DNA of 64,000 bases from NCBI RefSeq assembly GCF_006345805.1, contig NC_043005.1, positions 95,418,001-95,482,000 on the forward strand. The letters are read 5' to 3'. Positions 4,689-53,456 of this stretch are shown here, piece by piece. Numbering within the stretch: position 1 is the stretch's first letter; each line of letters starts with the position of its first letter. The position numbers and the translations under genes were made by a program. The notes below the pieces were generated by a model, which was not told where the DNA came from, made no database searches, and was given only the letters and a program-made list of their open reading frames with translations. Source of the DNA: Octopus sinensis (lineage: Eukaryota).

Positions 4689-5349
4689 ATGCATGTATGT
4701 ATGTATGTATGTATGTATGTATGTATGTATGTATGTATGTATGTATGTGTCAGGTCTCCGCTTGGAGCTACTGGTAACATGTAACCCAGTACAACCTGTT
4801 ACATGGTCGGGTCGTTGGCGACTAAACTGGCAACCCCACCAAGATTTCTTGGTGAGGAGGGTGATTTGGACACCCAGCAGGACTAAAAACAAAACCTGTC
4901 AAAGGGCAGAGGAACTCTCTCATGAGTCAATGGCCATCCAAAATCCGGAGTGGAGCCCCTAAGGCGGTTGGATTGCGCCATGCGTGCCACCTTCCGGCAG
5001 CTCCTGCATCTTGGTCTACCCCCAGTCGTCTTGACTTTGTCTTGCCACTGGATCCGGCGCACCAGGACGAGAGAGTGAGGCTGATCCTGCGCAAGTCACC
5101 CTCACTATAATCCAAGTCACGCGCATGTCACGACATCATGACGCCATGACACCATCCCAAAGTCCTGTGGCGATGGGGAAACGGCGAAGTAGCAGGTGAG
5201 GATACACTGGGAGCTGCAGTCGTGAACCCACACACAGGCGGCTCAGGACATGTGGTCGCCCCTCACTGAACTGAGGCAGCAGTGGAGTCCGGCAGCCTCC
5301 TGAGTGACCGAGCAGCCCTCTTCAGGATCGCTCTGCTCGCCTCCCCAGC

Positions 5350-6789
5350 ATGAGGACGGGGCTAGAAAAGGTTGCCCTAAACATAGCCTGCCTCACCTCA
5401 CCCTGGTCAGCAAACCGCGGCTGGCGGGGATCCTTTCCAAGCGGTCGAAACAAAGAAAGAAGAAAACAAACAAAGGTGCTCACTTTCGCAACTTGGAACG
5501 TGAGAACTCTGCTTGACAACACCAAAGCGGACAGACCAGAGAGACGAACTGCCCTGGTGGCCAGAGAACTGAGCCGATACAGTGTCGATATTGCAGCACT
5601 GAGCGAGACCCGCCTTGCGGACAAAGGCCAGCTGACAGAGACAGGCGGCGGCTACACTTTCTTTTGGAGTGGTCGCAGCAGCGAAGAGCGTCGTGAGGCT
5701 GGTGTTGGTTTTGCCATTAAGTCAGTACATGTGCGGAAACTGGAAAGCCCCCCCGAGGGTATCAACGATCGGCTGATGAAGATGCAGCTCCCACTTGGAA
5801 ACAAGACTAGTGCGACCATCATCAGTGCTTACGCCCCCACCATGACCAACCCTGAAGAAATTAAGGACAGGTTCTATGAGGAACTCGACTCCCTCATCAC
5901 GTCAGCCCAGCCTGGGAAGCTCATCCTCCTTGGGGATTTTAATGCCCGTGTCGGGACTGACCACCAAGCCTGGCATCGCGTACTGGGAAAGCAAGGAATC
6001 GGAAAGTGCAACAGCAACGGACAGCTCCCCCTGCGTGCGTGTGCCTCTCATGATCTTACCATCGCCAACACCTTGTTCCGTCTGCCAACACGCAACAAGA
6101 CATCATGGATGCATCCACGCTCCAAACACTGGCATCTGATAGATTACGTCATCGTCAGGGCGAAAGACAGGCGGGACGTGAGACTGGTCAAAGCCATGTG
6201 CGGAGCTGACTGCTGGACGGACCATCGCCTCATCATCTCCAGGATGGATTTCTACATCCGACCTAAGAGAAGACCACAGGGTCAGAAAGTGACGAGGAAG
6301 CTTAACATCACGAAATTAAGGAACCAGCTGACTGCACAAGATCTCCAGTCACGTATGGACAGTAAGCTGTTGGACATTCGGAGTGACCAGTCCAGCATCG
6401 ATGAGCAGTGGGAATCATTCAGGGACACGGTTCATTCCATCGCCCTTGAAACTCTGGGCCAAATTACGAGGAACCACCAGGACTGGTTCGACGAAAACGA
6501 CCAGGAAATCCAAAAGCTCCTGGAAGAGAAACGCCGTCTGCTGCGGGCTCACCAAAATGATACCACCTGCACGGCAAAGAAGGCCGCTTTCAACAACATT
6601 CGCAGCACAGTCCAGGCTAAACTCCGCCTCATGCAAGATGCATGGTTAAGCGCCAAGGCGGATGAGATTCAGAGATACGCAGACAAACACGACACCAAGA
6701 AATTCTACGAGGCGCTGAAAGCTGTCTATGGACCGCAGTTCTCCTTTGGATCACCCCCCTGCTCAGCTCAGATGGAACCTCACTCCTGA
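5350..6789 (+). CDS. RTE LINE ORF, N-terminal part: apurinic-like endonuclease
   Basis: Motifs TWNVRTL, IAALSETR, SAYAPT, LLGDFNARVG, HWHLIDYV and WTDHRL. The frame shifts at the C6 run at 6754-6759. Confidence 0.93.
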   Translation: MRTGLEKVALNIACLTSPWSANRGWRGSFPSGRNKERRKQTKVLTFATWNVRTLLDNTKADRPERRTALVARELSRYSVDIAALSETRLADKGQLTETGGGYTFFWSGRSSEERREAGVGFAIKSVHVRKLESPPEGINDRLMKMQLPLGNKTSATIISAYAPTMTNPEEIKDRFYEELDSLITSAQPGKLILLGDFNARVGTDHQAWHRVLGKQGIGKCNSNGQLPLRACASHDLTIANTLFRLPTRNKTSWMHPRSKHWHLIDYVIVRAKDRRDVRLVKAMCGADCWTDHRLIISRMDFYIRPKRRPQGQKVTRKLNITKLRNQLTAQDLQSRMDSKLLDIRSDQSSIDEQWESFRDTVHSIALETLGQITRNHQDWFDENDQEIQKLLEEKRRLLRAHQNDTTCTAKKAAFNNIRSTVQAKLRLMQDAWLSAKADEIQRYADKHDTKKFYEALKAVYGPQFSFGSPPCSAQMEPHS

Positions 6790-8678
6790 CTAACAAGAGG
6801 CTGATCCTGGAGAGATGGGCGGAGCACTTCAACATCGTGCTCAACCGACCAGCCCAGATCAACGAGGAAGCCATCGCACGACTCCCCCAGGTGCCGACAA
6901 ACCACGAGTTGGCTGTTCCCCCTGCAGTCGGGGAAGTGAGCAGAGCCATCAAAAAAATGTCCACCGGCAAAGCTCCAGGCTCTGACGCCATCCCTGCAGA
7001 GGTGTTCAAGTCGGGAGGCCCCACCATGATCAGTCAGCTCACCAGCCTGTTCCAGTCGATGTGGGACAGGGAACAACTCCCTCAAGATTTCCGGGATGCA
7101 ACAATCGTCCACATTTATAAGCGGAAAGGAGATCGGCAGTCCTGCGACAACCACCGAGGTATTTCCCTCTTGTCCATAGCAGGCAAGATCCTGGCCCGGG
7201 TCCTGCTTGACCGCCTTCTGGAACACTTGGAGCAAGGCCTTCTCCCTGAGAGCCAGTGTGGCTTCCGTGCGGGTCGAGGGACCACTGACATGATATTCGC
7301 CGCCCGCCAGCTCCAGGAGAAATGCATGGAGCAGCACCTTGACCTCTGCATGACCTTTGTTGACCTCACCAAGGCCTTTGATACAGTCAGTCGGGAGGGA
7401 CTATGGAAGGTCATGGGAAATTTTGGTTGCCCCAGCAAATTTATTGCAATTGTCCGCCAGTTCCACGACGGAATGACAGCCAGAATCCTTGAGGACGGCG
7501 ACTCATCTGAAGCCTTCCAGGTGACCAACGGAGTCAGGCAGGGCTGTGTCCTGGCCCCAACACTGTTCAGCATCATGTTCTCGGCAATGATGTCCGACGC
7601 CTTTAGGGACTGCAAGTCCGGTATCAACATCAAGTACAGGACAGACGGGAAACTTTTCAACTCCAGGAGATTGCAGGCTGTCACAAAGGTGAGGGAGACA
7701 GTCGTCAGAGACTTTCTCTTTGCTGACGACTGCGCCCTTAATGCAATCGATGAGCAGGAGATGCAGCTCGAGATGGACAGGTTCTCATCAGCCTGTGACA
7801 ACTTCGGTCTCACCATCAGTGCCAAGAAAACCGAAGTAATGTTTCAGCCAGCCCCCGGCAAACAATACCATGAGCCTCAGATAAGGGTGAACGGACGGAT
7901 CTTACGAGTGGTGGAAAACTTCACCTACCTGGGCAGCACTCTCTCCTGCAATGCCAACATAGATGCTGAAACCATCAACAGAATCTCCAAGGCAAGCAGC
8001 GCGTTTGGGAGACTGCGAAAGAAAGTCTGGGAGCGGAGAGGAATCAGCCTCAACACCAAGCTGAAAGTCTACCGGGCAGTCGTGCTTACCACTCTACTAT
8101 ACGGCTGCGAGACGTGGACTGCTTACCGAAGGCACGAGCGCCAGATAAACCACTTCCATCTCAGGTGTCTTCGGAATCTCCTTCACATCCGCTGGCAGGA
8201 CAAAGTCCCAGACACGGAAGTTCTGAAGCAGGCAGATCTCCCTAGCACCATCACAATCATGCGCAAGGCCCAGCTGAGATGGGCAGGCCACGTCTCCCGC
8301 ATGTCCGACACTCGCATCCCAAAACAGCTCTTCTACGGTGAACTCGGCCAGGGCAGGCGCAAAGTCGGAGGGCAGAAAAAGCGCTACAAGGATAGTCTCA
8401 AGGTCTCTCTCAAAGACTTCTCCATCGGAACAGAGACCTGGGAGACACTTGCTGCCAACCGCTCATCCTGGCGCAGCGCAATCACCGTGGGAGCAGGGAC
8501 AGCCGAGGAGGGACAGATTCGGTCAGCGGAGCAGAAACGTCAGATGCGTAAAGTCAGAGCCGCCTGCACCAGTAGCACTGCCCCTACCCACTTCTGCCCC
8601 ACCTGTGGGAGGGGCTTCCTTGCCCGGATTGGCCTCACCAGCCACCTCCGGTCTCATGGCGGCAGTTCCATCAGATGA
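6759..8678 (+). CDS. RTE LINE ORF, C-terminal part: reverse transcriptase + C2H2 zinc finger
   Basis: The second frame reads LLSSDGTSLLTNKRLILERWAEHF from ~6759. Motifs: KAPGSD, ESQCGFR, FVDLTKAFD, GVRQGCVLAP, FADD, FTYLGS and CPTCGRGFLARIGLTSHLRSH. Confidence 0.93.
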   Translation: MLSSDGTSLLTNKRLILERWAEHFNIVLNRPAQINEEAIARLPQVPTNHELAVPPAVGEVSRAIKKMSTGKAPGSDAIPAEVFKSGGPTMISQLTSLFQSMWDREQLPQDFRDATIVHIYKRKGDRQSCDNHRGISLLSIAGKILARVLLDRLLEHLEQGLLPESQCGFRAGRGTTDMIFAARQLQEKCMEQHLDLCMTFVDLTKAFDTVSREGLWKVMGNFGCPSKFIAIVRQFHDGMTARILEDGDSSEAFQVTNGVRQGCVLAPTLFSIMFSAMMSDAFRDCKSGINIKYRTDGKLFNSRRLQAVTKVRETVVRDFLFADDCALNAIDEQEMQLEMDRFSSACDNFGLTISAKKTEVMFQPAPGKQYHEPQIRVNGRILRVVENFTYLGSTLSCNANIDAETINRISKASSAFGRLRKKVWERRGISLNTKLKVYRAVVLTTLLYGCETWTAYRRHERQINHFHLRCLRNLLHIRWQDKVPDTEVLKQADLPSTITIMRKAQLRWAGHVSRMSDTRIPKQLFYGELGQGRRKVGGQKKRYKDSLKVSLKDFSIGTETWETLAANRSSWRSAITVGAGTAEEGQIRSAEQKRQMRKVRAACTSSTAPTHFCPTCGRGFLARIGLTSHLRSHGGSSIR

Positions 8679-13426: not shown

Positions 13427-13698
13427 TCATATAAATGATAACGATAATCACTGTGGTTTGAACAATTAGCTTTACGTCCACCAAACTTCTATAGAGAAAT
13501 TCTTTCCAAAGCCTTCGAACATTCTTTCCCTCTCCACTTGTTCCCTACCTATTATTCCTTTAACCCTTCTCTTCCTACTATCTATCTTTGACGTCACTTC
13601 TTCTAACGGTTTTTTTAAAAAAAAACACTCATTATCGCTTTGTTTACCATGTAGGCAGTCATCGAAATTTTTGTTTGTCTTGTTGTCGAGAGAGGCTC

Positions 13699-13791
13699 CC
13701 TTTCTTTCCTGATGAGAAGATTGCATAATGCACCCTTTATTCCTTTGGAATGAAAACATGTTGTCTTCGAAACATATGTCGAGAGTAAAGG
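13699..13791 (+). ncRNA. Canonical type I hammerhead ribozyme in PLE 5' pseudo-LTR
   Basis: CTGATGA at 13709-13715, stem II gaaga/tcttc, GAAA at 13769-13772 and palindromic stem III ACATATGT. GUC cleavage triplet ends at 13780. Stem I is cctttctttc/gagagtaaagg. Confidence 0.88.
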
Positions 13792-14042
13792 AATTTTGTT
13801 AACATCTTCGTTCGACTCCATTCTTTCATTTATTCATATACAACACACAAATTTCTGCACATGAACCCGGAGTTTCTATCCTTGACAGATCGCTTTAACC
13901 GTGTTTCTGACGGGAATTTGCTACCCAGGTTTTGGTTAAACGAATTTTCCATGCTGACGATAAACATAGGATAATTCATTCACCTATTTAAATATTCTCA
14001 TACAGTTTCCCTGAGAACCTGTTAACATAACCGATACCGCAA

Positions 14043-15398
14043 ATGGAGTTGTTCAATATTAACGCCTCCATTAAGGATATCCCAATACCACCGAAAAAAG
14101 CCTTCCTTAAGGAAATTATTAACAAGACCAATGCATTTATCATCCGCATCAGATGGCTCGCCTTCTTCCACGACAATGAGGACCTAAAACGGACCAGTAA
14201 CGACGTCTCCCTTGAATATAAAAAACTATTTAAATCGAGGGGAACTCCTCCACCTAATCCTAGATTGAAGAAATTCGAAGATGATCTTTGGGACATCGTA
14301 AAGAATATTAAATTTCATAAATCACCCCTCAGGAATAAGCACCTCAGATACCTCGATAACGTCTCTAGAGATATAAACAGCTTGGATTCTATCCTGGTCC
14401 AATCAGATAAAACCGGCAACATTTATAAGCTTACCAAGAGCCATTATTTGGAACTGCTCGAAAAGGTGATACATAAGAATTACAGGACCACCAGTAGGAA
14501 TACTTCCAGACAGGCCAACTTAGAAACTAAACAGATTATGGAAACTTACGGATTACAGATGAAGACGGAACCATTGAACCCTAGGCAACCCAGATTCATC
14601 TTAAAAGCCCACAAGCATAACTTTCATACTAACCCAGCATTGCGGCTCATATACCCTTCCAGTTCAGACATCGGTACCCTTAGTAAATACATATTAGATA
14701 AGTATATCCCTACATTAATTAATAAATTAAAACTTAGCTTATGGTCCAGTTCTGTTCAAGTCGTAGATTGGTTTACTTCTATTACTGATAAGGCCAACAC
14801 TAAATTTATCCAATTCGATATATCTAGTTTCTATTCTTCAATCAACCCTATTATACTTAATAAGGCCCTATGGAACGCACACAATAAGGCAGGCCTCTCC
14901 AGGGAGGAAATTAGTGTGATATTGACTGCTAGGAAATCTTTCATCCAGTTCGATAGCAAGTTGTGGGTCCGTAGAGATACCCCTAATGCGTTTGATGTAC
15001 TAATGGGAAGTACAGACAGCGCCCAGATAGCCGATTTGGTCGGGATTTATATTCTTTATGAAATGGCCGACCAATTCCCGGACATCTGTGGAGGTCTTTA
15101 TCGCGACGATTGTCTGCTTTTCCTCCAAAACGTTTCGAACCAAAAAATACAGAAGGTTAAGAACAGATTAGTTAGGTTTTTTAGTAGAATGGGCTTGCGC
15201 ATAGTTTTTGACGATGAATTAACCAAAGCCAACTTCTTAGACATTACCCTCAATTTGCAGAATAACTCATACTTCCCTTATCATAAACCTTCCACAAATC
15301 TTAAATATATTAGCATTTTCAGTAATCATGCCAGGCCAATTACCGATAATTTAGTTAAAAACATATCTCTGAGACTGTCCAAATGTCGACATCTTTAA
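14043..15398 (+). CDS. PLE reverse transcriptase
   Basis: Motifs IKDIPIP..FIIRIRWLAFF, SDKTGN, KAHK..F..NP..RLI, QFDISSFYSSI, FDVLMGSTDSAQIADLVG, GLYRDD, NFLDITLNL and SNHA. A small deletion shifts the frame at ~15382. Confidence 0.92.
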   Translation: MELFNINASIKDIPIPPKKAFLKEIINKTNAFIIRIRWLAFFHDNEDLKRTSNDVSLEYKKLFKSRGTPPPNPRLKKFEDDLWDIVKNIKFHKSPLRNKHLRYLDNVSRDINSLDSILVQSDKTGNIYKLTKSHYLELLEKVIHKNYRTTSRNTSRQANLETKQIMETYGLQMKTEPLNPRQPRFILKAHKHNFHTNPALRLIYPSSSDIGTLSKYILDKYIPTLINKLKLSLWSSSVQVVDWFTSITDKANTKFIQFDISSFYSSINPIILNKALWNAHNKAGLSREEISVILTARKSFIQFDSKLWVRRDTPNAFDVLMGSTDSAQIADLVGIYILYEMADQFPDICGGLYRDDCLLFLQNVSNQKIQKVKNRLVRFFSRMGLRIVFDDELTKANFLDITLNLQNNSYFPYHKPSTNLKYISIFSNHARPITDNLVKNISLRLSKCRHL

Positions 15399-16302
15399 CC
15401 AAAAGGCAGACTTCTATAACGCCGCCTTGTTAAGAGCCGGTTATAAGGAGAAAGTGTTATACATCGACTCAGCTCATTCTAAACCAACATCTGCTTCTCC
15501 AGATAGCAAAGTTACTCGTAATAGGAATAATGATTCCAATTCTAATAGTGCCAGCAACCCTGTACATAAAATAAATTCTTTACGGATTAGGGGAGATAAG
15601 CGCCATGCAACCCCAAATTTCCAACCCAGAAATTTTCCTCTTACTATCACAAATAACACTAAAAACAATTCAAAGGCCACAAAAAACTGTATCTGGTTCG
15701 TAATACCTTTCGGAAAACAAATTAAATCGAACCTTCCCTTACAGTTCCGTGAAGCCGTTGCTAAGAACTTTCCCAGAAATTCTAGATATCATTCTATTAT
15801 CAATTCTCACAAGGTCAGAATCGCTTTCTCTAACACTAGGAATCTTTCACAAATTATAGCTTCCCACAATACCAAGCTGCTAAACAAAGATTCTTCACCC
15901 GGGAGTTCCAACACTAATCTTGATCATTCCAACCCATCATACAATCATAATAATAGGAATAGTATTAATAGTAACAGCATTGGTAGCAGCGAAAGTGTTA
16001 ACAATGATAATATTAATAATAGTATTAGTCGTGTTAATAACAATGGTAGTGTTGATGGTAACAACAATAACGGTATTATTGTCGGTGGTATTACTGGTTG
16101 TAGTACCATTAATAATACTAATAATAATAATAGAAATAGTGTAGTTGTTAGCGCTAATAATAATAGTAACAACAATCATAACAATAAAAACTTCGTTTCG
16201 ATCTCGGAGGACAACCCCAACAGAATTAAATTTTTGTCTAGTAATTCTAAGATTAAAAATACTATTTACCAGTGTAGAATTTCTTCCGGTACCGATGTCT
16301 TC

Positions 16303-16310
<8 letters not shown>
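15382..16310 (+). CDS. PLE linker and truncated GIY-YIG (continuation after frameshift)
   Basis: NVDIFNQKADFYNAAL.RAGY, CIWFVIPFGKQIKSN, an Asn-rich insert, then NTIYQC...FFYI, which runs into (TA)n. Confidence 0.85.
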
Positions 16311-16344: not shown

Positions 16345-16725
16345 AATGTTCGACTATATTATATTGTAAATCGAAAGATTTGTCCTTCAATGTATGATGA
16401 GTAAAGTTTCAGCCATTTAATTTGGGGGAGAACTTAGCTATGAACTATTTTTCCATATTCCTCCTGAAAGAGGTGTCGTTCTTCGGACATTTGTAGAAGG
16501 GAAAGATCTTAAATTTTCCTTCTCCACACGTAGCTAGATGTGTACTTAGTGGTATTTTGCGTAGTTCTTCCTGCCGAATATGTTGTCGGTGAATCCTGGC
16601 TCGCTGGCACAAAGAATTACCAGTTTCACCTACGTAATTCTCCTTGCACGTAGGGCAGGTTATGCAGTATATGACGTTCTGCGTCTTGCAGTTCATATCT
16701 GCATTTACTTTGAATATGTCACCAC
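16345..16725 (-). mobile_element. GIY-YIG endonuclease fragment of a second PLE type (Neptune-like, CxxC within GIY-YIG)
   Basis: MNCKTQNVIYCITCPTCKENYVGETG...RIHRQHIR...LSTHL..C. Confidence 0.85.
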
Positions 16726-16979
16726 ATACACATACACATACACACATGTTCTCTCTCTCACTTTCCCCTCATCCACCTCACCCTCTTGTGCTGTCTTGTT
16801 CCTCCCCACCACTACGAAACTCTATAAAATGATTCAAATTCCCCACAAAGGAATTATTTTGATTTAAAAACCCCACTAGAATGGGAGAAAGCGCTAATGA
16901 TCTAAGTGATATGATATATATGTAAAAAAATGTAATATATAAATAAATATCTGTAAATATAAACCATCCGATCTTCTGA

Positions 16980-17072: not shown

Positions 17073-17775
17073 TTATATATATATATTATATATATATATA
17101 TCATCTCCAAACCTTCCAATATATATATATATTATATATATATATATATATATATTATTGGAAGGTTTGGAGATGATGTACAGGTATTATATATTAGAAG
17201 AAATGAGGTAAGGCCCTAATCAGTACCAATATTGCTAGAAATAAGAGTCAAAACTACTCAATAGCCACAGAAGCACTATCTCTGTGACTAATAAGGGAGG
17301 CAAGCTCCCTACAGCAGCAGACATAGCCAGATCATCGATGATTTCCCATTTTGATGCCTACACATCTTAATGCTTATCCGCTGGCTCTTACTGCACCTAG
17401 GGCTAAACCCAGCTCGCCTTGTCAGCTTTTAAGATTTCCATTGGAATTATTTACTGATTTCATCGATAATTGGCTATATCTGCTGTCATAGGGAATTTAC
17501 CTCCCTTGTCAGTCATTAAAATAGTGCGTCTGTGGCTAATGAGTTGTTTTGACTCTTATTTCTAGCAATACTGGTACTGATTAGGGCCTTTTACCACTTT
17601 AGCACGTTAGTGACTTATATATTTCGGCATTTAGGTTATAAAACCGCCAATTAGACAGCCATATCATTTATAATTTTCACTTTTAACCTTATGTGAAATC
17701 AATGTATGATTTCAACAGAAATCTTATAAGTTGACAAGGCGAACTGAATTTAACCCCAGGCGCAGTAAGAGCCAC
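16980..17775. repeat. Complex fold-back element around (TA)n
   Basis: Three inverted pairs: 16980-17034 vs ~17156-17211, 17211-17340 vs 17460-17590, and ~17372-17450 vs ~17705-17772. Confidence 0.8.
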
Positions 17776-24477: not shown

Positions 24478-26044
24478 AGTCTGATTTGGCTTTGTCAAGG
24501 AAGTGAGAAGTCAGATCACCTTAATTACTGCTTAATTGGACACGCTGAACTGACGACAGTCATTAGAGCGTCGAAGAGAAACACCTTGCAGGATTTGCTC
24601 CACTCTGGCCAAAACCAACTTTCTTTTTCATCTTACAAGGAATAAGGTACCAATAAATAGCTTGGAGGTATTCCTTCTCTTTCTCTCCCTCCTCACTCTC
24701 TCTCTCCTTCTCTCTATTTTTCCCTCTCACTCTCTCTGTCTTTCTAACTATCTCTCTCTTTCTCTCTTTCTCTTAGACCCCAAGCTAGAGAAGAAGTGAT
24801 GCCACTGCAGATTATTTATGCACAAAAACCCTGATTCTGTCGGCGAAAACCTACGAAACAATAACTCTAAACGTCCTTCTCTCCCACTTTATTCTTCTTG
24901 TTGTTGTTGCTACTGCTGCTGCTGTTTAGCCCTTGGACATCACCGATTCAGCGTACAAATTAACAAACTCATTCTAGACGTGAATATTCCTTTATATTTA
25001 CTATATCTACGATTACATTGTCCAATGTGTTCTTGCCATTCTAAAACAGCGGGAGGTACGCTCTGAAGAAGATTCGGCTAATATTTCTAGCAAGCCGGCC
25101 CGAGAGAGCCTTATAATGGAAAGTGTCTGGTACTTGAAAACCTCATCATTCTGATTATTGATGTTTTATCATAATTAGCTTCACATTAATAATGTAAAAG
25201 ACATTGAGCGCCATACTTTGGAAATTGGTCCCCGACGGAGACTGTAGATACAGGACAATAAATGTTATTGATGTTGTTGTTGGTGGTGGTGGTGGTGGTG
25301 GTGGTGGTGGTGATGGGGGGGGGTGTTCTGATATCGACAATCCTGTGACCGTAGTCATGTGATTATTGTTATTTACTTGCGCTTGTCTCAGCTTTTATCA
25401 TTGTTGTTGCTGCTGTTCAATGGGACAGAGAGAGGGGGGAAGAGCGAGAAGGGGAAGAGGGAGAGAGAAAGAGGGAAAGAAAGCGGGAGAGAGAGGGATG
25501 AGGACAGACAGACAGAGACAGACAGAGGGAGTAAACATGTCACTGACAGATAATGCAGAGTTATCAAGTGTTGACCTAGTTCCGATAGGAAGATCCTGTT
25601 TGTACTATGGGTGGGGGTAGGGGGAATGAGTCTATCTGTACCTACTACATTCATACGCTACTATATATAAGTGTGAGAATTTTTGTTTGCATACATATTT
25701 ATGCCACCAAAACACATGCACATACACATTCATAAACGCACACACACTCATACACACGCACGTGTGTTTGTGTGTGTGTGTATATATATATATGTGTGTG
25801 TGTGTGTGTATATACAAAATAAGAAAATGGAGAAATACATCGAAATCAAATATCAATTACCAGATAATACTCAATCACATACTTTATTAAACCACTACAT
25901 AAGAAACTATAAGGTTAAACATAATAATGCAGGGTAAAACAGTGTACATGAAGGAGTGTATATAAAATAGTAATGTTATACAATAAGTAGAATACGTATA
26001 ATAGAACATAAATATAAGTACACATAAATATAGATATAGACTAT

Positions 26045-29872: not shown

Positions 29873-32800
29873 TTTTGTTTGTTTACATTTTCAATATCTG
29901 TTCTCGATATAATAATTTTTCAGATACTCTATCTTCTAATTAGCCTTAAGATTAAATTAAATAACGTTTAATATTACCCACACTCTAATATAATTTTTGT
30001 TTGTTTACATTTTCAATATCTGTTCTCGATATAATAATTTTTCAGATACTCTATCTTCTAATTAGCCTTAAGATTAAATTAAATAACGTTTAATATTGAT
30101 AACGTCTAATTAGCCTTAAGATTAAATTAAATAACGTTTAATATTGTTTAATATTGTTAATAATTATTGTTAATTAGCCTTAAGATTAAATTAAATAACG
30201 TTTAATATTGTTTAATATTGTTAATAATTTTTCAGATATTCTATCTTCTAATTAGCCTTAAGATTAAATTAAATAACGTTTAATATTACCCATACTCTAA
30301 TATAATTTTTGTTTGTTTACATTTTCAATATCTATTCTCGATATAATAATTTTTCAGATACTCTATCTTCTAATTAGCCTTAAGATTAAATTAAATAACG
30401 TTTAATATTGATAACGTCTAATTAGCCTTAAGATTAAATTAAATAACGTTTAATATTGTTTAATATTCTTAATAATTATTGTTAATTAGCCTTAAGATTA
30501 AATTAAATAACGTTTAATATTGTTTAATATTGTTAATAATTTTTCAGATACTCTATCTTCTAATTAGCCTTAAGATCAAATTAAATAACGTTTAATATTA
30601 CCCACACTCTAATATAATTTTTGTTTGTTTACATTTTCAATATCTGTTCTCGATATAATAAATTTTCAGATACTCTATCTTCTAATTAGCCTTAAGATTA
30701 AATTTAAATAACGTTTAATATTGATAACGTCTAATTAGCCTTAGGATTAAATTAAATAACGTTTAATATTGTTTAATATTGTTAATAATTATTGTTAATT
30801 AGCCTTAAGATTAAATTAAATAACGTTTAATATTGTTTTAATATTGTTAATAATTTTTCAGATACTCTATCTTCTAATTAGCCTTAAGATTAAATTAAAT
30901 AACGTTTAATATTACCCACACTCTAATATAATTTTTGTTTGTTTACATTTTCAATATCTGTTCTCGATATAATAATTTTTCAGATACTCTATCTTCTAAT
31001 TAGCCTTAAGATTAAATTAAATAACGTTTAATATTAATAACGTCTAATTAGCCTTAGGATTAAATTAAATAACGTTTAATATTGTTTTAATATTGTTAAT
31101 AATTTTTCAGATACTCTATCTTCTAATTAGCCTTAAGATTAAATTAAATAACGTTTAATATTACCCACACTCTAATATAATTTTTGTTTGTTTACATTTT
31201 CAATATCTGTTCTCGATATAATAATTTTTCAGATACTCTATCTTCTAATTAGCCTTAAGATTAAATTAAATAACGTTTAATATTAATAACGTCTAATTAG
31301 CCTTAGGATTAAATTAAATAACGTTTAATATTGTTTAATATTGTAAATAATTATTGTTAATTAGCCTTAAGATTAAATTAAATAACGTTTAATATTGTTT
31401 TAATATTGTTAATAATTTTTCAGATACTCTATCTTCTAATTAGCCTTAAGATTAAATTAAATAACGTTTAATATTACCCACACTCTAATATAATATTAAT
31501 ATTGCTAATATATTTTCAGATACTCTATCTTCTAATTAGCCTTAAGATTAAATTAAATAACGTTTAATATTACCCACACTCTAATATAATTTTTGTTTGT
31601 TTACATTTTCAATATCTGTTCTCGATATAATAATTTTTCAGATACTCTATCTTCTAATTAGCCTTAAGATTAAATTAAATAACGTTTAATATTGATAACG
31701 TCTAATTAGCCTTAAGATTAAATTAAATAACGTTTAATATTGTTTAATATTGTTAATAATTATTGTTAATTAGCCTTAAGATTAAATTAAATAACGTTTA
31801 ATATTGTTTAATATTGTTAATAATTTTTCAGATACTCTATCTTCTAATTAGCCTTAAGATTAAATTAAATAACGTTTAATATTACCCACACTCTAATATA
31901 ATTTTTGTTTGTTTACATTTTCAATATCTGTTTTCGATATAATAATTTTTCAGATACTCTATCTTCTAATTAGCCTTAAGATTAAATTAAATAACGTTTA
32001 ATATTAATAACGTCTAATTAGTCTTAGGATTAAATTAAATAACGTTTAATATTGTTTAATATTGTAAATAATTATTGTTAATTAGCCTTAAGATTAAATT
32101 AAATAACGTTTAATATTGTTTTAATATTGTTAATAATTTTTCAGATACTCTATCTTCTAATTAGCCTTAAGATTAAATTAAATAACGTTTAATATTACGC
32201 ACACTCTAATATAATATTAATATTGCTAATATATTTTCAGATACTCTATCTCCTAATTAGCTTTAAGATTAAATAACGTTTTTACCCACACTCTAATATA
32301 ATATTAATATTGCTAATATATTTTCAGATACTCTATCTTCTAATTAGCCTTAAGATTAAATTAAATAACGTTTAATATTAATAACGTCTAATTAGCCTTA
32401 AGATTAAATTAAATAACGTTTAATATTGCTTAATATTGTTAATAATTTTTCAGATACTCTGTCTTCTAATTAGCCTTAAGATTAAATTAAATAACGTTTA
32501 ATATTACCCACACTCTAATATAATATTAATATTGCTAATATATTTTCAGATACTCTATCTCCAAATTAGCCTTAAGATTAAATAACGTTTTTACCCACAC
32601 TCTAATATAATATTAATATTGCTAATATATTTTCAGATACTCTATCTCCTAATTAGCCTTAAGATTAAACAACGTTTTTACCCACACTCTAATATAATAT
32701 TAATATTGCTATTAGCCTTAAGATTAAACAACGTTTTTACCCACACTCTAATATAATATTAATATTGCTAATACATTTTTAGATACTCTATCCCCTAATT

Positions 32801-32890
32801 AGCCTTAAGATTAAATAACGTTTTTACCCACAAACTTTAATATTGTTAATATTTCTTTTTCAAGTACTCTATCTTCTAATTAGCCTTAAT
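29873..32890. repeat. AT-rich higher-order tandem array (~38 copies of core taattagccttaagattaaattaaataacgtttaatatt; ~312-bp HOR)
   Basis: Cores at 29942, 30064, 30112, 30176, 30254, 30376 and onward, with spacings cycling 122/48/64/78. Units of 96 and 87 bp and shortened cores appear toward 32890. Confidence 0.95.
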
Positions 32891-32950
32891 ATCTTCCTGT
32901 CTTCTCTCGAACATAATTAGATAGATAAACGGATAGACGGATTATCCAGC

Positions 32951-33862
32951 ATGTCCAGAGCATGGAGACCTGACGAGCTGGATTTATTCGTACAAGCATG
33001 GGAGTGCGCCGGCGGAGATAGCCCTAGCGAGGTGATTGCGGCTGCGCTGAAGAGCAGAGGCTACAAGAGGACAGCGGCTCAGATGGAGCGAAAGAGACGG
33101 AAATTCGTGCGCTCATATGCGCTTGTACGGTCGCACATTGGCGCACTTGATGCCATCTTTGAGAACGAGCGGGGCAAAGATGGCAAGAATGGAGACGATG
33201 AAAGAAGTCACCCCCACCTGGTGGACGCCCGAGAGGAGGTTTTGAATGAGAAACCTGCCCGGGAAGTGAACCCAGGTGCAAGTTCTCCAACCGGCAGCAA
33301 GGGCCATGGAGACGGAGAACCCGGTGAAGAAGTATAGGGAGGAAGAAGAACTAAAAGAAGGACTGGAAGAGCTAAAGGAAAAGAAAAAGCTCAAGCAGGA
33401 CCAAAGGGTGAAACAACCAGGAATAGAAGTGGAACCGCAAAGGATGGAACCAAACAGCGCACACGGGTGTGTATGTTCTACCTGAGAGGTTCCTGCTGGC
33501 ATGGAAAGGAAGGTGCAGGCTGCCGCTTTGCACATCGGGGACCCTGCCACAGAGACACGAGGCAGATGGACAAACCATCAACACAAAGAAAAGGGATGGA
33601 CCACGCACCACCTGCCCCAAAGCGGAGGTACGCAGATGTTGTGCGCGCCACAAACCGCCAACATGATGTTGTCGAAAGAGCAGCTGCTGAGCAACAATCT
33701 TTTTTGTGCATGGCACAAAAGATTGTACAGCAGCTGACCTGGCTTCATCAAACCCAAGCCCGCAGGTGGGACTACCCACTATATACCAGACCACCACAGC
33801 AAACAGACACAGGATGGACACCGCCGGCAACAACGTACACCTCACCTCGATGCTCCTACTGA
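32951..33862 (+). CDS. LINE ORF1: N-terminal Myb/SANT-like (trihelix-type) domain + CCCH zinc finger; one in-frame stop at 33335-33337
   Basis: AWRPDELDLFVQAW...IAAALKSRGYKRTAAQMERKRRKF. The same frame continues after TAG into a basic linker and CMFYLRGSCWHGKEGAGCRFAH. Confidence 0.7.
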
Positions 33863-36798
33863 ACATCAGAGGACTGCAAACACTCAGTAACAGGACAAAG
33901 ATCCCGTTCCTGAGAGACTTTGTTGCATGCAATCAAGCCTTATGCATAGCACTTACGAAAACGCACCTGAAACCGGACATAGCAGATGCGGAGTTACACA
34001 TACCACAGTATGCTGTACTACGGACCGACAGGAAAGAAAGGAGTCATGGAGGTGTTGCTATGTACATCCGTGAGGACCTCACACCCCAGGTCCTCTTGTC
34101 ATACTCAAACTCGGTGTGTGACACACTAATTGTACATATTAGGCAACTTGATGTAGTTGTGTGTGCTACATATCGCCCTCCAGATGCCCCAAGCCATGTG
34201 GGCAAGTTTGAAGACTGCCTTATAAAAATAGAAGAAATTCTAACCACATTAGAACAACACATAGGTGTGCTTCTTATGGGAGACTTCAATCTGCCCAATG
34301 TCAGATGGCCCGAGGGCCTTTCTCTTCCAGGAATGACAAGATGTGAACGAGGACAGGCGAGGTCCCTCCTGAACCTCATCAACACCCTGTACATGGAGCA
34401 GGTAATACTCCAACCAACCAGAGCAGGCAACACACTGGATCTCTGCTTCACAAATGACATGGATCTCATCCATAATATGAAAGTGACACCGACACTACTC
34501 TCGGATCACAACATGATAGAGCTGACCATGTACGGGCCAAAAGAGAGCACGGACATGCAGCCTACAAGAAACCCTCAAAATCTTTCCAGCTTGAACTACC
34601 ATAAGGCAAACTGGAAACAAATTGAGAAAGAGATCCTCAAACAAAACTGGCCTAAATGTCTCTCCTCGCCAGACATCGACGTGAAATTTCAACAATTCAT
34701 GTCTGTAATGCAAGCCATATGCTACAAATGTGTCCCAGAGAGAAAGGCCACTGTACACAAGAACAAATCCCCAGAGAGAGGAAAATTTTAATGAGACGGC
34801 GTACGAAATTTTCAAATCGCCTAAACAAACAGATTGAAAGCAGTGAAAAGTCCCGCCTAAAAATAAAACTGTTGGAATCGAAAAATGTCTGCAACTCTCC
34901 CATGAAAAAGAAAGAGCAGACAAAGAAGCCTGGGCTATAGACAACATAAAATCTAACCCCAGAGCTTTCTACAGGTATGCCAAAGAAACAGCTACAGTGC
35001 ACTGTAGAAGGGCCACTCCTCGAAAAGGATGGCACACTTACAGGAAAACCAATGAGGGTAAGTGAAATGCTGAATGAGCAATTCAAGAGTGTTTTCACTC
35101 CACCCCTTGGGCATCTCCAAATCACCAATCCAACTGACTTTTTTACCACTGCAGATATAAAATCAGAGGCGGCGACGATAGATTACATCGATATAAAGGA
35201 AGACGATGTAACCAAGGCTATAGATGAAATGAAAACAGACTCAGCTACTGGCCCCGATGGATTCCCGGCAATCCTCCTAAAAGCATGTAAGAGAGTCCTA
35301 GCAAGACCACTGCAGTTCCTCTTTCAGAGCTTCCTTGCAGCTGGCAAACTTCCAGGAAAACTGAAGGAAGGTAAAATATGCCCCATTCATAAAGGAGGTA
35401 GCAGAGCGGAAGCCAAGAACTATAGACCTATCTCTCTGACCTCACACATCAGCAAGGTCATGGAACGAATAGTCAGAAGGAAGCTGATCACCTTCCTTGA
35501 AGAGAATGACTTGCTGCCCGACACCCAACATGGTTTCCGACCAGGGAGAAGCTGTTTAACTCAGCTCCTACAACACTATGACTGGGTGCTGAAACGGCTG
35601 CTCAACCACTCAAATGTGGAAGTGATATATCTCGACTTTGCAAAGGCCTTTGATAAAGTCGATCATGGAATAATATGTCACAAACTGCGTGATCTCAACA
35701 TAGTTGGAAAACTGGGAGAATGGCTTCATGACTTCTGAAGGATAGAAGTCAGGTGGTAGTAGCCAATGGGGCCACCTCCATTAACACACAAATAGTGAGC
35801 GGTGTTCCGCAGGGCACTGTTCTGGGACCACTATTCATAATGGCCCTCTCAGACATGCCCTCAGCCACGCAGAGAGCCACGATCACAAGTTATGCAGATG
35901 ATACAAAAGTTTCACAGGCAATACAGAACCCTGAGGACACTAAACACCTGCAATGTGAGCTGGACGAAATATACAAGTGGGCTGAAAAGAATAGCATGCA
36001 GTTCAATGCTGGAAAGTTTCAAGCTTTATACTATCAGCATGCAAAACTGAATGCAATACCCAATGAATACACTGGACCCGGAGGGATTGCAATCCCAGAG
36101 GCACAATCAGTGCGTGACCTGGGTATTCACATGAGTGATGACGCGACCTTTCATGTACATGTTGCTAAACTGACAATGAAATGTAGACGGCTGGATGGAT
36201 TCTTAGAACCTTTAGAACAAGAGAACAAGAATACATGATGGTCCTCTGGAAGACACTTGTCCTAAGCCACTTTGACTATTGCTCTCAGCTATGGTCACCA
36301 TCCAGTGTCAAGTTGATCACAGAACTTCAGGCGATCCAACGAAGCTACACGAAGAAGATAGCCTCTATGCAGAATGTAAGCTACTGGGAAAGACTCAAGA
36401 GATTAAAATTATATTCCCTGGAGCGTAGGCGGGAAAGATATGCCATAATATACATCTGGAAGATCCTGGAGGGAAGTGTCCTGAACTTTGGCATCGAGAG
36501 TTACGCAAATGCCAGAACTGGGCGCCACTGCGTGGTGCCTAGGACTCCAAACCTGCCATCAAGATGTAGGACAAGATTCTATGATAGCCTGGGCTTCCGA
36601 GGCCCACAGCTCTTCAATATCCTCCCGAAGAACCTGAGAGACCTGCATGGGGTGGATACAGATGTCTTTAAAATGAAGCTGGATCTCTTCCTGTCAGGTG
36701 TCCCAGATGAACCAACTTCACGGCAGGAGGGGCAGATGAGGGCAGCTGCATCGAACTCTCTCATGCACCAAATAGCAGTTGCTAGAAACCCTCCATGA
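33706..36798 (+). pseudogene. LINE ORF2 (APE endonuclease + RT), broken by several small frameshifts
   Basis: Motifs LLNIRGL, HGGVAMY, YRPP, MGDFNLP, NTLDL, SDHN, ATGPDG, NYRPISLTS, QHGFR, YLDFAKAFDKV, SGVPQGTVLGP, YADDT, RDLG and LYSLERRRER. Shifts near 34770, 34880, 34990, 35735 and 36190. Confidence 0.92.
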
Positions 36799-48644: not shown

Positions 48645-49470
48645 TAATATAATAATAATAGTAAATGGCAAGTTTGGGTGTTTGTGAAATTGCTACATTA
48701 ACTCCTCCGAGACTATCCAACAGACTTTGATGAAACTTGACATGTGTGGCGGGGTTTATGCGCATGCGGCCACTTACGCACTTGGAATTTTTTTTAATTG
48801 ATTTTTAATCGGGATTGATTTTTCACAAATTTTAAAATTTCGGCATTTTTCGCACTAGTTATCGTGACATCAATTTGACGAAAAATGCCGGAATTTGACG
48901 AAAAATGTTTCATGGGTATAAACAGACAGCTGATTAAGGGTAATCTATTTAGCATTTGCTAATTCTTCATTTCAATGCGAATTGTTTTGATTTGCTAAAA
49001 CTTATTATTTCAATTCGTTGTTTTAATTCCCCAGCGTTTCAGGTTTTGATTAGGTAAGACCATTTTATTTCTCAAGCAAAATTTAGGTATTTTGCGCACT
49101 AGCCGTCCTGACATCAATTTGACGAAATGTGCCCCTGAGCGTAAAATTTCGCCATTTTACGCACGTGCATAAAAATGACGACAAAACAGGTTCGCTACAC
49201 AATCTTGTACGCAGTTAATTGAACCTTGTTGATTCATTATTTTTGCTCGCCTACAATATAGTGTATTATTCTCGGAGATCTTAAGGTGATAATAGTATCT
49301 TTAGCGTCTATTTCTTGCAGTGCGTGGTGAGGCGTAAAGCCAATCCTTTGTTATAATTATGTATATAATTATAAAATATCTTTTAAAATTTACCGATGAG
49401 GTTTTTATTTCCGCACTGACCACCTGGTAAAACTTTTATCGATTTTACCTTTTATTATAATTAATTTTGA

Positions 49471-49516
<46 letters not shown>

Positions 49517-49544
49517 GATATATATATATTATATATATATATTT

Positions 49545-50381
49545 TATATAATTAGGGCTTAGTAAAATAAATTACTTCGCCACATACTGAACTTAGTAGA
49601 AATAGCAGCCAAAACAATTTTCTTAGCATTTCTACTACTTAAATGCTAAGAAAATTTGTTTTGGCTGCTATTTCTACTAAGTTCAGTATGTGGCGAAGTA
49701 ATTTATTTTACTAAGCCCTAATTATATAATGTAATATTTTGAATTCGCCTTAAATGGTCCTTTTACATACTGAACACTTGGTGAAATTGATAATTAATTA
49801 TTTTACCCTCAATTGTTGATATTATAATTCATTCTCTCGGTCATATTGCCTCGGTTCTCGCGGTTAAAATATAATGTTTGCTAGATAGACCACGTGGGTG
49901 GAATGGGGAGTGCAGAATTTTACGCCTGCGCATTTTGAATTTGTTGACACTGTTAGTTGGAGTGGTTCATCTGAAGCGACAAGTTTGCTGATAGGTAAAG
50001 TTCCTTCTTTTTAGTGTTTCCAAATCCAAATTAAGAAATTTTGAGCTGACGAAAGAAATGCTGATTTTATTTGGCTAATCTTGAAACGTTGACGTACTCA
50101 AACGATCTATGTACTTGTGATATTTTTCTGTATTTACCCCCAAACCTTCGTGAGCTGTCTAGAGTAAACATTATCTGAGAGAAATTTTCTTTAAGTAGTA
50201 GAAATGCTAAGAAAATTTGTTTTGGCTGCTATTTCTACTAAGTTCAGTATGTGGCGAAGTAATTTATTTTACTAAGCCCTAATTATATAATGTAATATTT
50301 TGAATTCGCCTTAAATGGTCCTTTTACATACTGAACACTTGGTGAAATTGATTAATTAATTAATTTTACCCTCAATTGTTG

Positions 50382-50384
<3 letters not shown>
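49545..50384. mobile_element. Non-coding pseudo-LTR element: inverted arm + ~182-bp direct repeats (period ~561 bp) in (TA)n
   Basis: 49641-49822 is repeated at 50202-50384. 49545-49642 is the reverse complement of 50191-50288. Confidence 0.85.
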
Positions 50385-50420
<36 letters not shown>

Positions 50421-50430
50421 ATATATATAT

Positions 50431-50670
50431 ACTCTTTACTCTTTACTCTTTACTTGTTTCGGTCATTTGACTGCGGCCATGCTGGAGCACTGCCTTTAAT
50501 CGAGCAACTCGACCACGGGACTTATTCTTTTGTAAGCCTAGTACTTATTCTATCGGTCTCTTTTGCCGAACCGCTAAGTAACGGGGACATAAACACACCA
50601 GCATCGGTTGTCAAGCGATGTTGGGGGGGGGACAAACACAGACACACAAACACACACACGCACATATATA

Positions 50671-52519: not shown

Positions 52520-53456
52520 CTTTACGTTATCGTTTTACCTTGTAGAGACAGAACCTAGTTTTCACTCAAATCACATCATATTTAGGTTCTTTTTAAAAAC
52601 ATAATGAAGTGTTTATATAGTGTTGTCTTTGTAAAACTTAAAAAGACAAGATAGCCGTAGCCGGAATACTTTTGATTATAAGATTGTCCAATCAGAATTG
52701 ACATGCGGTAAATCGAGACCAATACGAGGCAATGTGTAATTCATTGTGTGGTCAATTAACATGCTAGAAATAACAGTAGAATCTCTCTCAAATCACGCCC
52801 TTACCATGAATACGAGGCTCCTGAACATAGAATTAATAAGATGAAATAGTCACGACTGGAGTGGTTTTGCTCACGACTCTGATCAAATATGTCTCACCAT
52901 TAACTATGCCCGTCGCTAACGAGATGCACTGAACGGCACTGGTTCTTCATTATTCAATGGTGCGCCCCCAGATTATAAAAAAAAATACAGTTTACAAAAA
53001 TCTTCCCGAAATACAAACTTGTGTCTACACAGAATATTCTGAAGAAACATTCCACCCTCAGCCCGGACACCAAAGTTTGACGACGGGTCTGCCAGTAACG
53101 ATGATAACGACACAAATAGTAATAACAATAACAACAGCAACAGTAACAACAGAATCAATGAAGGTGACTTCAAGAGAATCAAATTAAGCCAGTTAGTGTT
53201 AATAATATGCTTCGAAAAGGCATGCGAGCCAGAAAAATAAGAACAATAGCAACACAAGTTAAAACAACAACGATATCGATTGAAAACAACAATAACAAAA
53301 ATAGAAGCAGCTCCAGCGTTCTTCTGGCTGTAGCTCATCAGTGTTACGGTGACGAGGGGATGCTCATCTGTCAGATATTAAGATAACACTGACAGATTGA
53401 TAACACAAATACATACGGATATCACTGACTAAAAGGCCATCACTGATATGCAGACA

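Follow-up and report, generated by a model that had tools for sequence, protein, structure and literature searches.

A young non-coding retrozyme of Octopus sinensis with a type I hammerhead and a conserved 17-nt motif, probably mobilised in trans by a Penelope-like machinery

Analysis of a 64,000-nt stretch of the Octopus sinensis genome (contig NC_043005.1, positions 95,418,001 to 95,482,000 of the forward strand; hereafter the window) revealed a young copy of a non-coding, non-autonomous non-LTR retrozyme. For its copying it probably relies in trans on the reverse transcriptase (RT) and endonuclease of a Penelope-like element (PLE), with a conserved 17-nt motif being a likely part of the module through which its RNA is docked. 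The features of this insertion, in window coordinates, are:

49471-49544, unstranded: left target microsatellite (TA)n, within an array detected at 49471-49550
49545-49641, minus strand: inverted 5'-truncated arm of ~97 nt, with terminus 1 as its outer end and a copy of the motif at 49597-49613
49641-50201, plus strand: 561-nt non-coding monomer of 34% GC, its phase set by the inversion junction
49641-49822, plus strand: first direct repeat, pseudo-LTR-like, with a copy of the motif at 49660-49676
50040-50102, plus strand: type I hammerhead, recognised by core letters and covariation, predicted to cut after 50096
50196-50240, plus strand: hairpin P1, whose 3' arm is the conserved motif, showing only one-sided (G-U) changes and no compensatory pair
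50202-50385, plus strand: second direct repeat, ending at terminus 2, the putative second RT start, with a ~90-nt tail past terminus 1
50221-50237, plus strand: conserved 17-nt motif, in RNA sense UUUGGCUGCUAUUUCUA, 124 nt past the predicted cut
50243-50335, plus strand: long-range stem P2 (50243-50251 with 50327-50335), enclosing P3 and terminus 1
50277-50292, plus strand: terminus 1, the putative first RT start, AU-rich and directly after P3
50382-50431, unstranded: right target microsatellite (TA)n, from array detection

An initial annotation of this region had proposed the order (TA)n, inverted arm, repeat, body, repeat and (TA)n, all parts of which were recovered. Its comparison with Penelope-like insertions also held, as a partial tandem, an inverted truncated arm, a tail and a (TA)n target are all present. 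The direct repeats are identical over 49641-49791 and 50202-50352 at a spacing of 561 and constitute a partial tandem of the 561-nt unit, with the forward part of the insertion amounting to 1.33 units. The inverted arm displays 99% complementarity over 49544-49621 to each of the two repeats, and its inner 10 nt correspond to 50192-50201, in agreement with the earlier remark that the arm includes sequence that precedes the second repeat but not the first. At both of its outer ends an insertion terminates in an RNA-sense 3' end, and the inner junctions are variable. The longest open frame within the element spans 53 codons, consistent with its description as non-coding.

The same annotation had held that no CUGANGA/GAAA fold was visible; to the contrary, the body contains a complete, covarying type I hammerhead, which was the best-formed of four candidate rows (50040-50102, plus strand) in a hammerhead pattern scan of both strands of the window. 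Helix I is formed by 50040-50045 with 50097-50102 (6 bp), and is followed by CUGACGA at 50046-50052, helix II with an internal loop at 50053-50082, GAAA at 50083-50086, and a short, near-palindromic helix III with the GUA triplet at 50094-50096. An Rfam scan of 49400-50500 gave no hammerhead family match at E<=10, its 19 matches all falling under the gathering score and mostly involving microRNA models on the inverted arm, and the hammerhead fold (-9.2 kcal/mol; z-score -0.36) lies 0.4 kcal/mol above the local minimum of -9.6. Given these two results, covariation was tested on 16 of 19 non-redundant diverged relatives, the 3 damaged or near-duplicate sequences being excluded. In these 16, 87.5% of the hammerhead cells pair, against 75.0% in a shuffle that ignores relatedness, and two-sided changes, in counts uncorrected for phylogeny, affect 11 of 14 hammerhead pairs including all six of helix I. 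The core pair C3-G8 is replaced by U3-A8 in two of the 16 relatives, helix II lacks its first pair in 12, and the ribozyme pattern is intact at 29 of 30 young loci. The support for the hammerhead is made up of its core letters and this covariation. Subfamilies of the wider RZ-A superfamily described below, with variant cores (U3-A8, C4 or U3 alone), were also encountered (L053, L151, L155, L167 and L040). Helix II contains a conserved AUG, whose possible role as a start codon was discarded because its frame closes after 6 codons in this copy and the AUG belongs to the conserved internal loop. By eye no excess of 5' ends was seen at the cut, 5 of about 48 lying within 25 nt of it in a set biased to full bodies.

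A search of the genome (2.72 Gb) with the element body produced 2295 candidates, and among the 40 that were scored the full-length matches are 98-99% identical and located on many contigs. The 30 young loci correspond to 26 distinct insertions, 20 of which have an inverted arm. Beyond these, the window element belongs to a diverged superfamily, RZ-A, with 44 insertions that show 69-99% identity to the window unit where alignable. Features shared with non-LTR retrozymes include the type I hammerhead, the absence of protein coding, a GC content under 45%, and dispersed, mobile copies; tandem hammerhead-bearing units are seen at the level of the family, with at least two same-direction ribozymes in 6 of the 26 young insertions, and the window copy holds one. 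The single ribozyme suggests that no monomer would be released from that copy alone. The RT plus GIY-YIG ORF of an autonomous PLE is missing, and the insertion signature is that of PLEs with a tail of ~90 nt versus 30-40. Copies run through the ribozyme site, with 34 of 68 RZ-A motif copies that were not chosen by the body extending past the ribozyme core, and this, taken with the 1.33-unit forward part, suggests copying from a circle, from an uncut multimer or from templates that had been joined, as the proposal of a multimeric or circular template had anticipated.

Several additional features of RZ-A were noted. A CACGTG-like box upstream of the hammerhead (49890-49897) recurs across RZ-A families and could be a promoter remnant, and a splice-donor-like site (49992-50000), also upstream of the hammerhead and conserved across RZ-A, could be an intron remnant. 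No splice joint at this donor-like site was found among contig sets whose RNA origin is guessed; four such sets, their RNA origin being a guess only, cover 29-30 of 30 bins and were left unused as evidence. In one RZ-A copy a different repeat of ~380 nt lies at terminus 1 (L004:1981-2364), and this repeat also adjoins the L228 family.

The 17-nt motif is far more widespread than the window element. The suggested genome-wide collection returned 13,756 exact matches, as opposed to 0 for the reversed control. Contexts were determined for the 100 places at the top of the list, which lie in the first 30 Mb of contig C1; of these, 68 fall in RZ-A and 32 in other contexts. In RZ-A the motif is situated 109-127 nt past the predicted cut. 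A cross-family test then used one representative per family for 22 further hammerhead families encountered in the flanks. Five of these have a motif with <=3 mismatches 71-79 nt past the cut, each with a shuffle p<=0.003; RZ-C and RZ-D, which belong to this group of five, had been added to the test list by hand after the motif had been seen. Two further families show a weaker match at 77 and 87 nt (p of 0.05 and 0.017, respectively), and a significant match is absent from 15 of the 22, including three autonomous elements. BLAST comparison of RZ-A with the other motif-bearing hammerhead families detected a single 28-nt match, and additional boxes ahead of the second end are common to several motif-bearing families. 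The idea of a conserved cis element in dissimilar families thus gains support from its fixed position behind the cut in RZ-A and five of the 22 others. The upstream pairing arm of the motif is absent in the other families, indicating that the structure of the motif is not conserved.

Recurrences of the motif had been reported elsewhere in the window and are indeed present, at 17236, 17564, 25089 and 52765, in the following copies:

17210-17590, unstranded: old two-armed RZ-D copy, with variant motifs at 17236-17252 and 17548-17564
24896-25097, plus strand: decayed copy of the S repeat, with a variant motif at 25073-25089
52711-52897, minus strand: decayed copy of the S repeat, with a variant motif at 52765-52781

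A relative of the window RZ-D copy (L297) has a hammerhead core 77 nt ahead of the motif. S is an old, abundant repeat of ~215 nt, and its sequence past the motif resembles RZ-B by eye. A hammerhead core upstream of the motif was found in none of the 32 non-RZ-A matches, nor was one found for the S repeat. By eye, three stems can be arranged around a CUGA in the 5' part of S, ~95 nt before the motif (for example in 24896-25097), giving a drawing that resembles a worn or variant hammerhead without GAAA. Yet another repeat family (L265 and L266) combines the motif and an S-type downstream hairpin with a different upstream context.

The region between the ribozyme and the copy ends was examined in an alignment of 14 of 16 sequences, which were selected on the motif and from which 2 chimeric arms were excluded. 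In these 14, 92.8% of the cells of the P1-P3 fold pair, compared with 90.4% in shuffled alignments, without correction for phylogeny; compensatory cells number 17 versus 6.2 shuffled, all of them in P2 and P3, where five pairs have compensatory changes. The ends of the arms fall into two sharp classes: of the 151 distinct arms that bear the motif, 105 run into (TA)n in one of the two classes, 57 of them 40-79 nt and 48 of them 140-179 nt past the motif, with 7 stopping elsewhere and 39 running on. The fixed orientation and distance of the motif point to a role in docking. A CCCU(A/C)A word precedes both ends in the window (50277-50285 and 50363-50375), and a CCC-type word is found within 22 nt of the end in 45 of 57 first-class and 45 of 50 second-class ends. 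This word resembles the telomerase template word.

Our search for an autonomous RT partner sharing the motif, as the initial annotation had envisaged, found none among the elements examined, the searches covering the best candidates only. Neither the region behind the hammerhead nor the 3' end yielded the motif at 46 loci of a Poseidon-like family, 30 GIY-YIG loci or 20 extended ones. Among the matches listed, it was likewise not found for the Neptune-like family of 16445-16768 (30 plus 19 loci) or, over 30 plus 20 loci, for two Neptune-like families whose frames measure 781 and 784 codons. The window itself has fragments of such elements: a Poseidon-like PLE fragment at 13430-16305 on the plus strand, with a type I hammerhead at 13704-13785 and an RT frame at 14031-15398, is frameshifted in the RT frame and ends in (TA)n within the endonuclease, and a Neptune-like GIY-YIG fragment (Pfam PF01541) lies at 16445-16768 on the minus strand. 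For the Poseidon-like family 11,056 candidates were obtained, including some whose open frames are ~900 codons long, and the Neptune-like one is abundant, with a long microsatellite-rich 3' region. Other repeats in the window comprise near-complete LINE-like elements at 5308-8678 and 32921-36798, both on the plus strand, whose endonuclease and RT frames were judged by eye from translations, and an AT-rich complex tandem array at 29873-32832 with periods of 64-409 nt (19.5% GC at 30001-32000).

Some retrozyme families are joined to one another within single insertions, with direct RZ-A/RZ-C junctions at L025 and L034 and an RZ-C/RZ-D junction at L297. The only direct junction to a Neptune-like ORF, which is 5'-truncated, involves RZ-C (L185), and contacts between RZ-A and Neptune-like sequences are separated by (TA)n (L126/L195, L313 and L320). 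These junctions, being single cases, hint at one shared machinery, perhaps of the Neptune type. RZ-C was also considered as the pLTR of the 781-codon Neptune-like family and this was rejected, the two being joined in only one of 30 RZ-C loci.

The closest functional parallel is the Poseidon element PAc of Anolis carolinensis, which, according to the accessible text of PMC11167929, nicks AT-rich DNA and extends both strands, requires RNA downstream of its hammerhead, uses uncut RNA as a template, and has two internal RT starts downstream of the hammerhead that define an optional tail. In the same text the PLE protein-binding RNA is mapped only to a 172-nt region. By analogy, the plan of PAc likely explains the window element, and a PLE protein likely binds the module between the ribozyme and the ends: both have a hammerhead followed by a binding region (inferred in our case), two starts (likewise inferred), an AT-rich target and probably extension of both strands, perhaps from uncut RNA (PMC11167929, available part). 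They differ in that PAc is autonomous, with its binding region inside the ORF, whereas the window element lacks an ORF; its tail measures ~90 nt compared with 30-40 nt in PAc; and, unlike in PAc, the putative RT starts lie ~195 and ~290 nt past the cut (PMC11167929, same part).

A mobilisation cycle consistent with these observations would begin with transcription of tandem loci, those with two ribozymes yielding a 561-nt monomer or circle. A PLE protein would then bind the module formed by the motif and P1-P3 and nick (TA)n, and reverse transcription would start internally at one of two AU-rich sites, ~50 or ~145 nt past the motif. Copying would pass the ribozyme site, the template being a circle or an uncut multimer, and the inverted arm could result from priming on both target strands. 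A wider version, in which at least six dissimilar retrozyme families and the old S repeat share the motif as an RNA recognition code for one Penelope-type RT, which would load them and start at fixed downstream sites, is possible, but we advance it only tentatively and consider it rather more doubtful than the docking role.

From family to family the motif retains its sequence but pairs with a different partner, which suggests base-specific recognition and would also be compatible with a DNA promoter site. The motif might act as DNA within the retrozyme, as a host transcription-factor or promoter site that many repeat families retain for their transcription, which we judge unlikely though deserving of a serious hearing. 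The motif resembles a MEF2-type site with one mismatch. Its absence from the autonomous PLEs examined would fit such a role, as would its behaviour in S: across 49 old copies that were not retrieved through the motif, it is the best-kept 17-column window (0.79 versus 0.666 +/- 0.030, with the next best at 0.736), a pattern that host selection might produce. Motif-bearing copies were used to seed the S profile, however, and this inflates the motif score. Against a DNA site, the motif occurs in a single orientation and within a narrow range of distances from both the ribozyme cut and the copy ends, and most changes in the P1 arms allow G-U pairing on the ribozyme strand (of 126 cells, 11 are one-sided and 7 broken).

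Instead of spreading on its own as a retrozyme, the unit might alternatively be the solo pseudo-LTR of an autonomous PLE still to be located. Its insertion geometry matches that of PLE ends (PMC8557442, in the part available), and Xenopus retrozymes are related to pLTRs in the accessible portion of bioRxiv 10.64898/2026.07.22.740005. We nevertheless regard this as quite improbable, as units abut seamlessly at 561-567 nt, without an intervening ORF, and no in-phase PLE ORF was found at the 26 young or 44 motif-selected insertions (flanks of 1.5-3.5 kb). The view of the initial annotation, that a hammerhead is absent and that the motif represents a novel ribozyme core or a processing site, is scarcely tenable: the motif is strongly conserved within a hairpin, Rfam gave no hammerhead match and no upstream core was found in S, which has the motif, but the canonical hammerhead leaves nothing that requires the motif to be a new core, its pairing varies between families unlike that of a catalytic core, and the outer copy ends lie 40-79 or 140-179 nt away from it, which a module for RT start fits better than a processing site.

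The preferred reading, a retrozyme docked to a PLE machinery, places the window element among known systems as follows. For metazoan non-LTR retrozymes PLEs have been proposed, not shown, as the mobiliser (PMC7229834 and bioRxiv 10.64898/2026.07.22.740005, in their available parts). Like them, the family has non-coding tandem units of low GC that each carry a type I hammerhead, and it occurs as monomers, dimers and multimers (PMC7229834, available text). The unit of 561 nt exceeds the typical ~300 nt and is within the range of 51-972 (bioRxiv 10.64898/2026.07.22.740005, accessible portion). Cleavage and circles have been demonstrated for metazoan retrozymes, whereas the hammerhead here is predicted from sequence, and the inverted arms, fixed ends and shared cis motif seen here are not described in the available parts of these two sources (PMC7229834; bioRxiv 10.64898/2026.07.22.740005). 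Among Xenopus elements, self-cleavage was observed in only one of nine (the latter source, same portion). With EN+ PLEs, including Naiad and Neptune, the element shares a pLTR-forming partial tandem, a tail, a (TA)n bias and an adjoining inverted 5'-truncated copy (PMC8557442, available text). Naiads lack a canonical hammerhead and have remnants in cephalopods (same text), whereas the window element has a canonical type I hammerhead and no ORF, so the earlier likening to hammerhead-less Naiads falls away.

No account of retrozymes in cephalopods or of the 17-nt motif turned up in a literature search, although Repbase/Dfam and supplements may hold these families, and the words 'ribozyme' and 'retrozyme' do not occur in the available main text of PMC13282606. 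The element class itself is ordinary; what is new is the hammerhead correction and the position of the 17-mer across families. Together, the motif, the two sharp putative start sites and the covarying fold define exact mutants for the existing in vitro assay. If the recognition code is real, the motif, which is missing in this form from the autonomous elements sampled, would represent a defined cis signal for the trans-mobilisation of retrozymes by PLEs.
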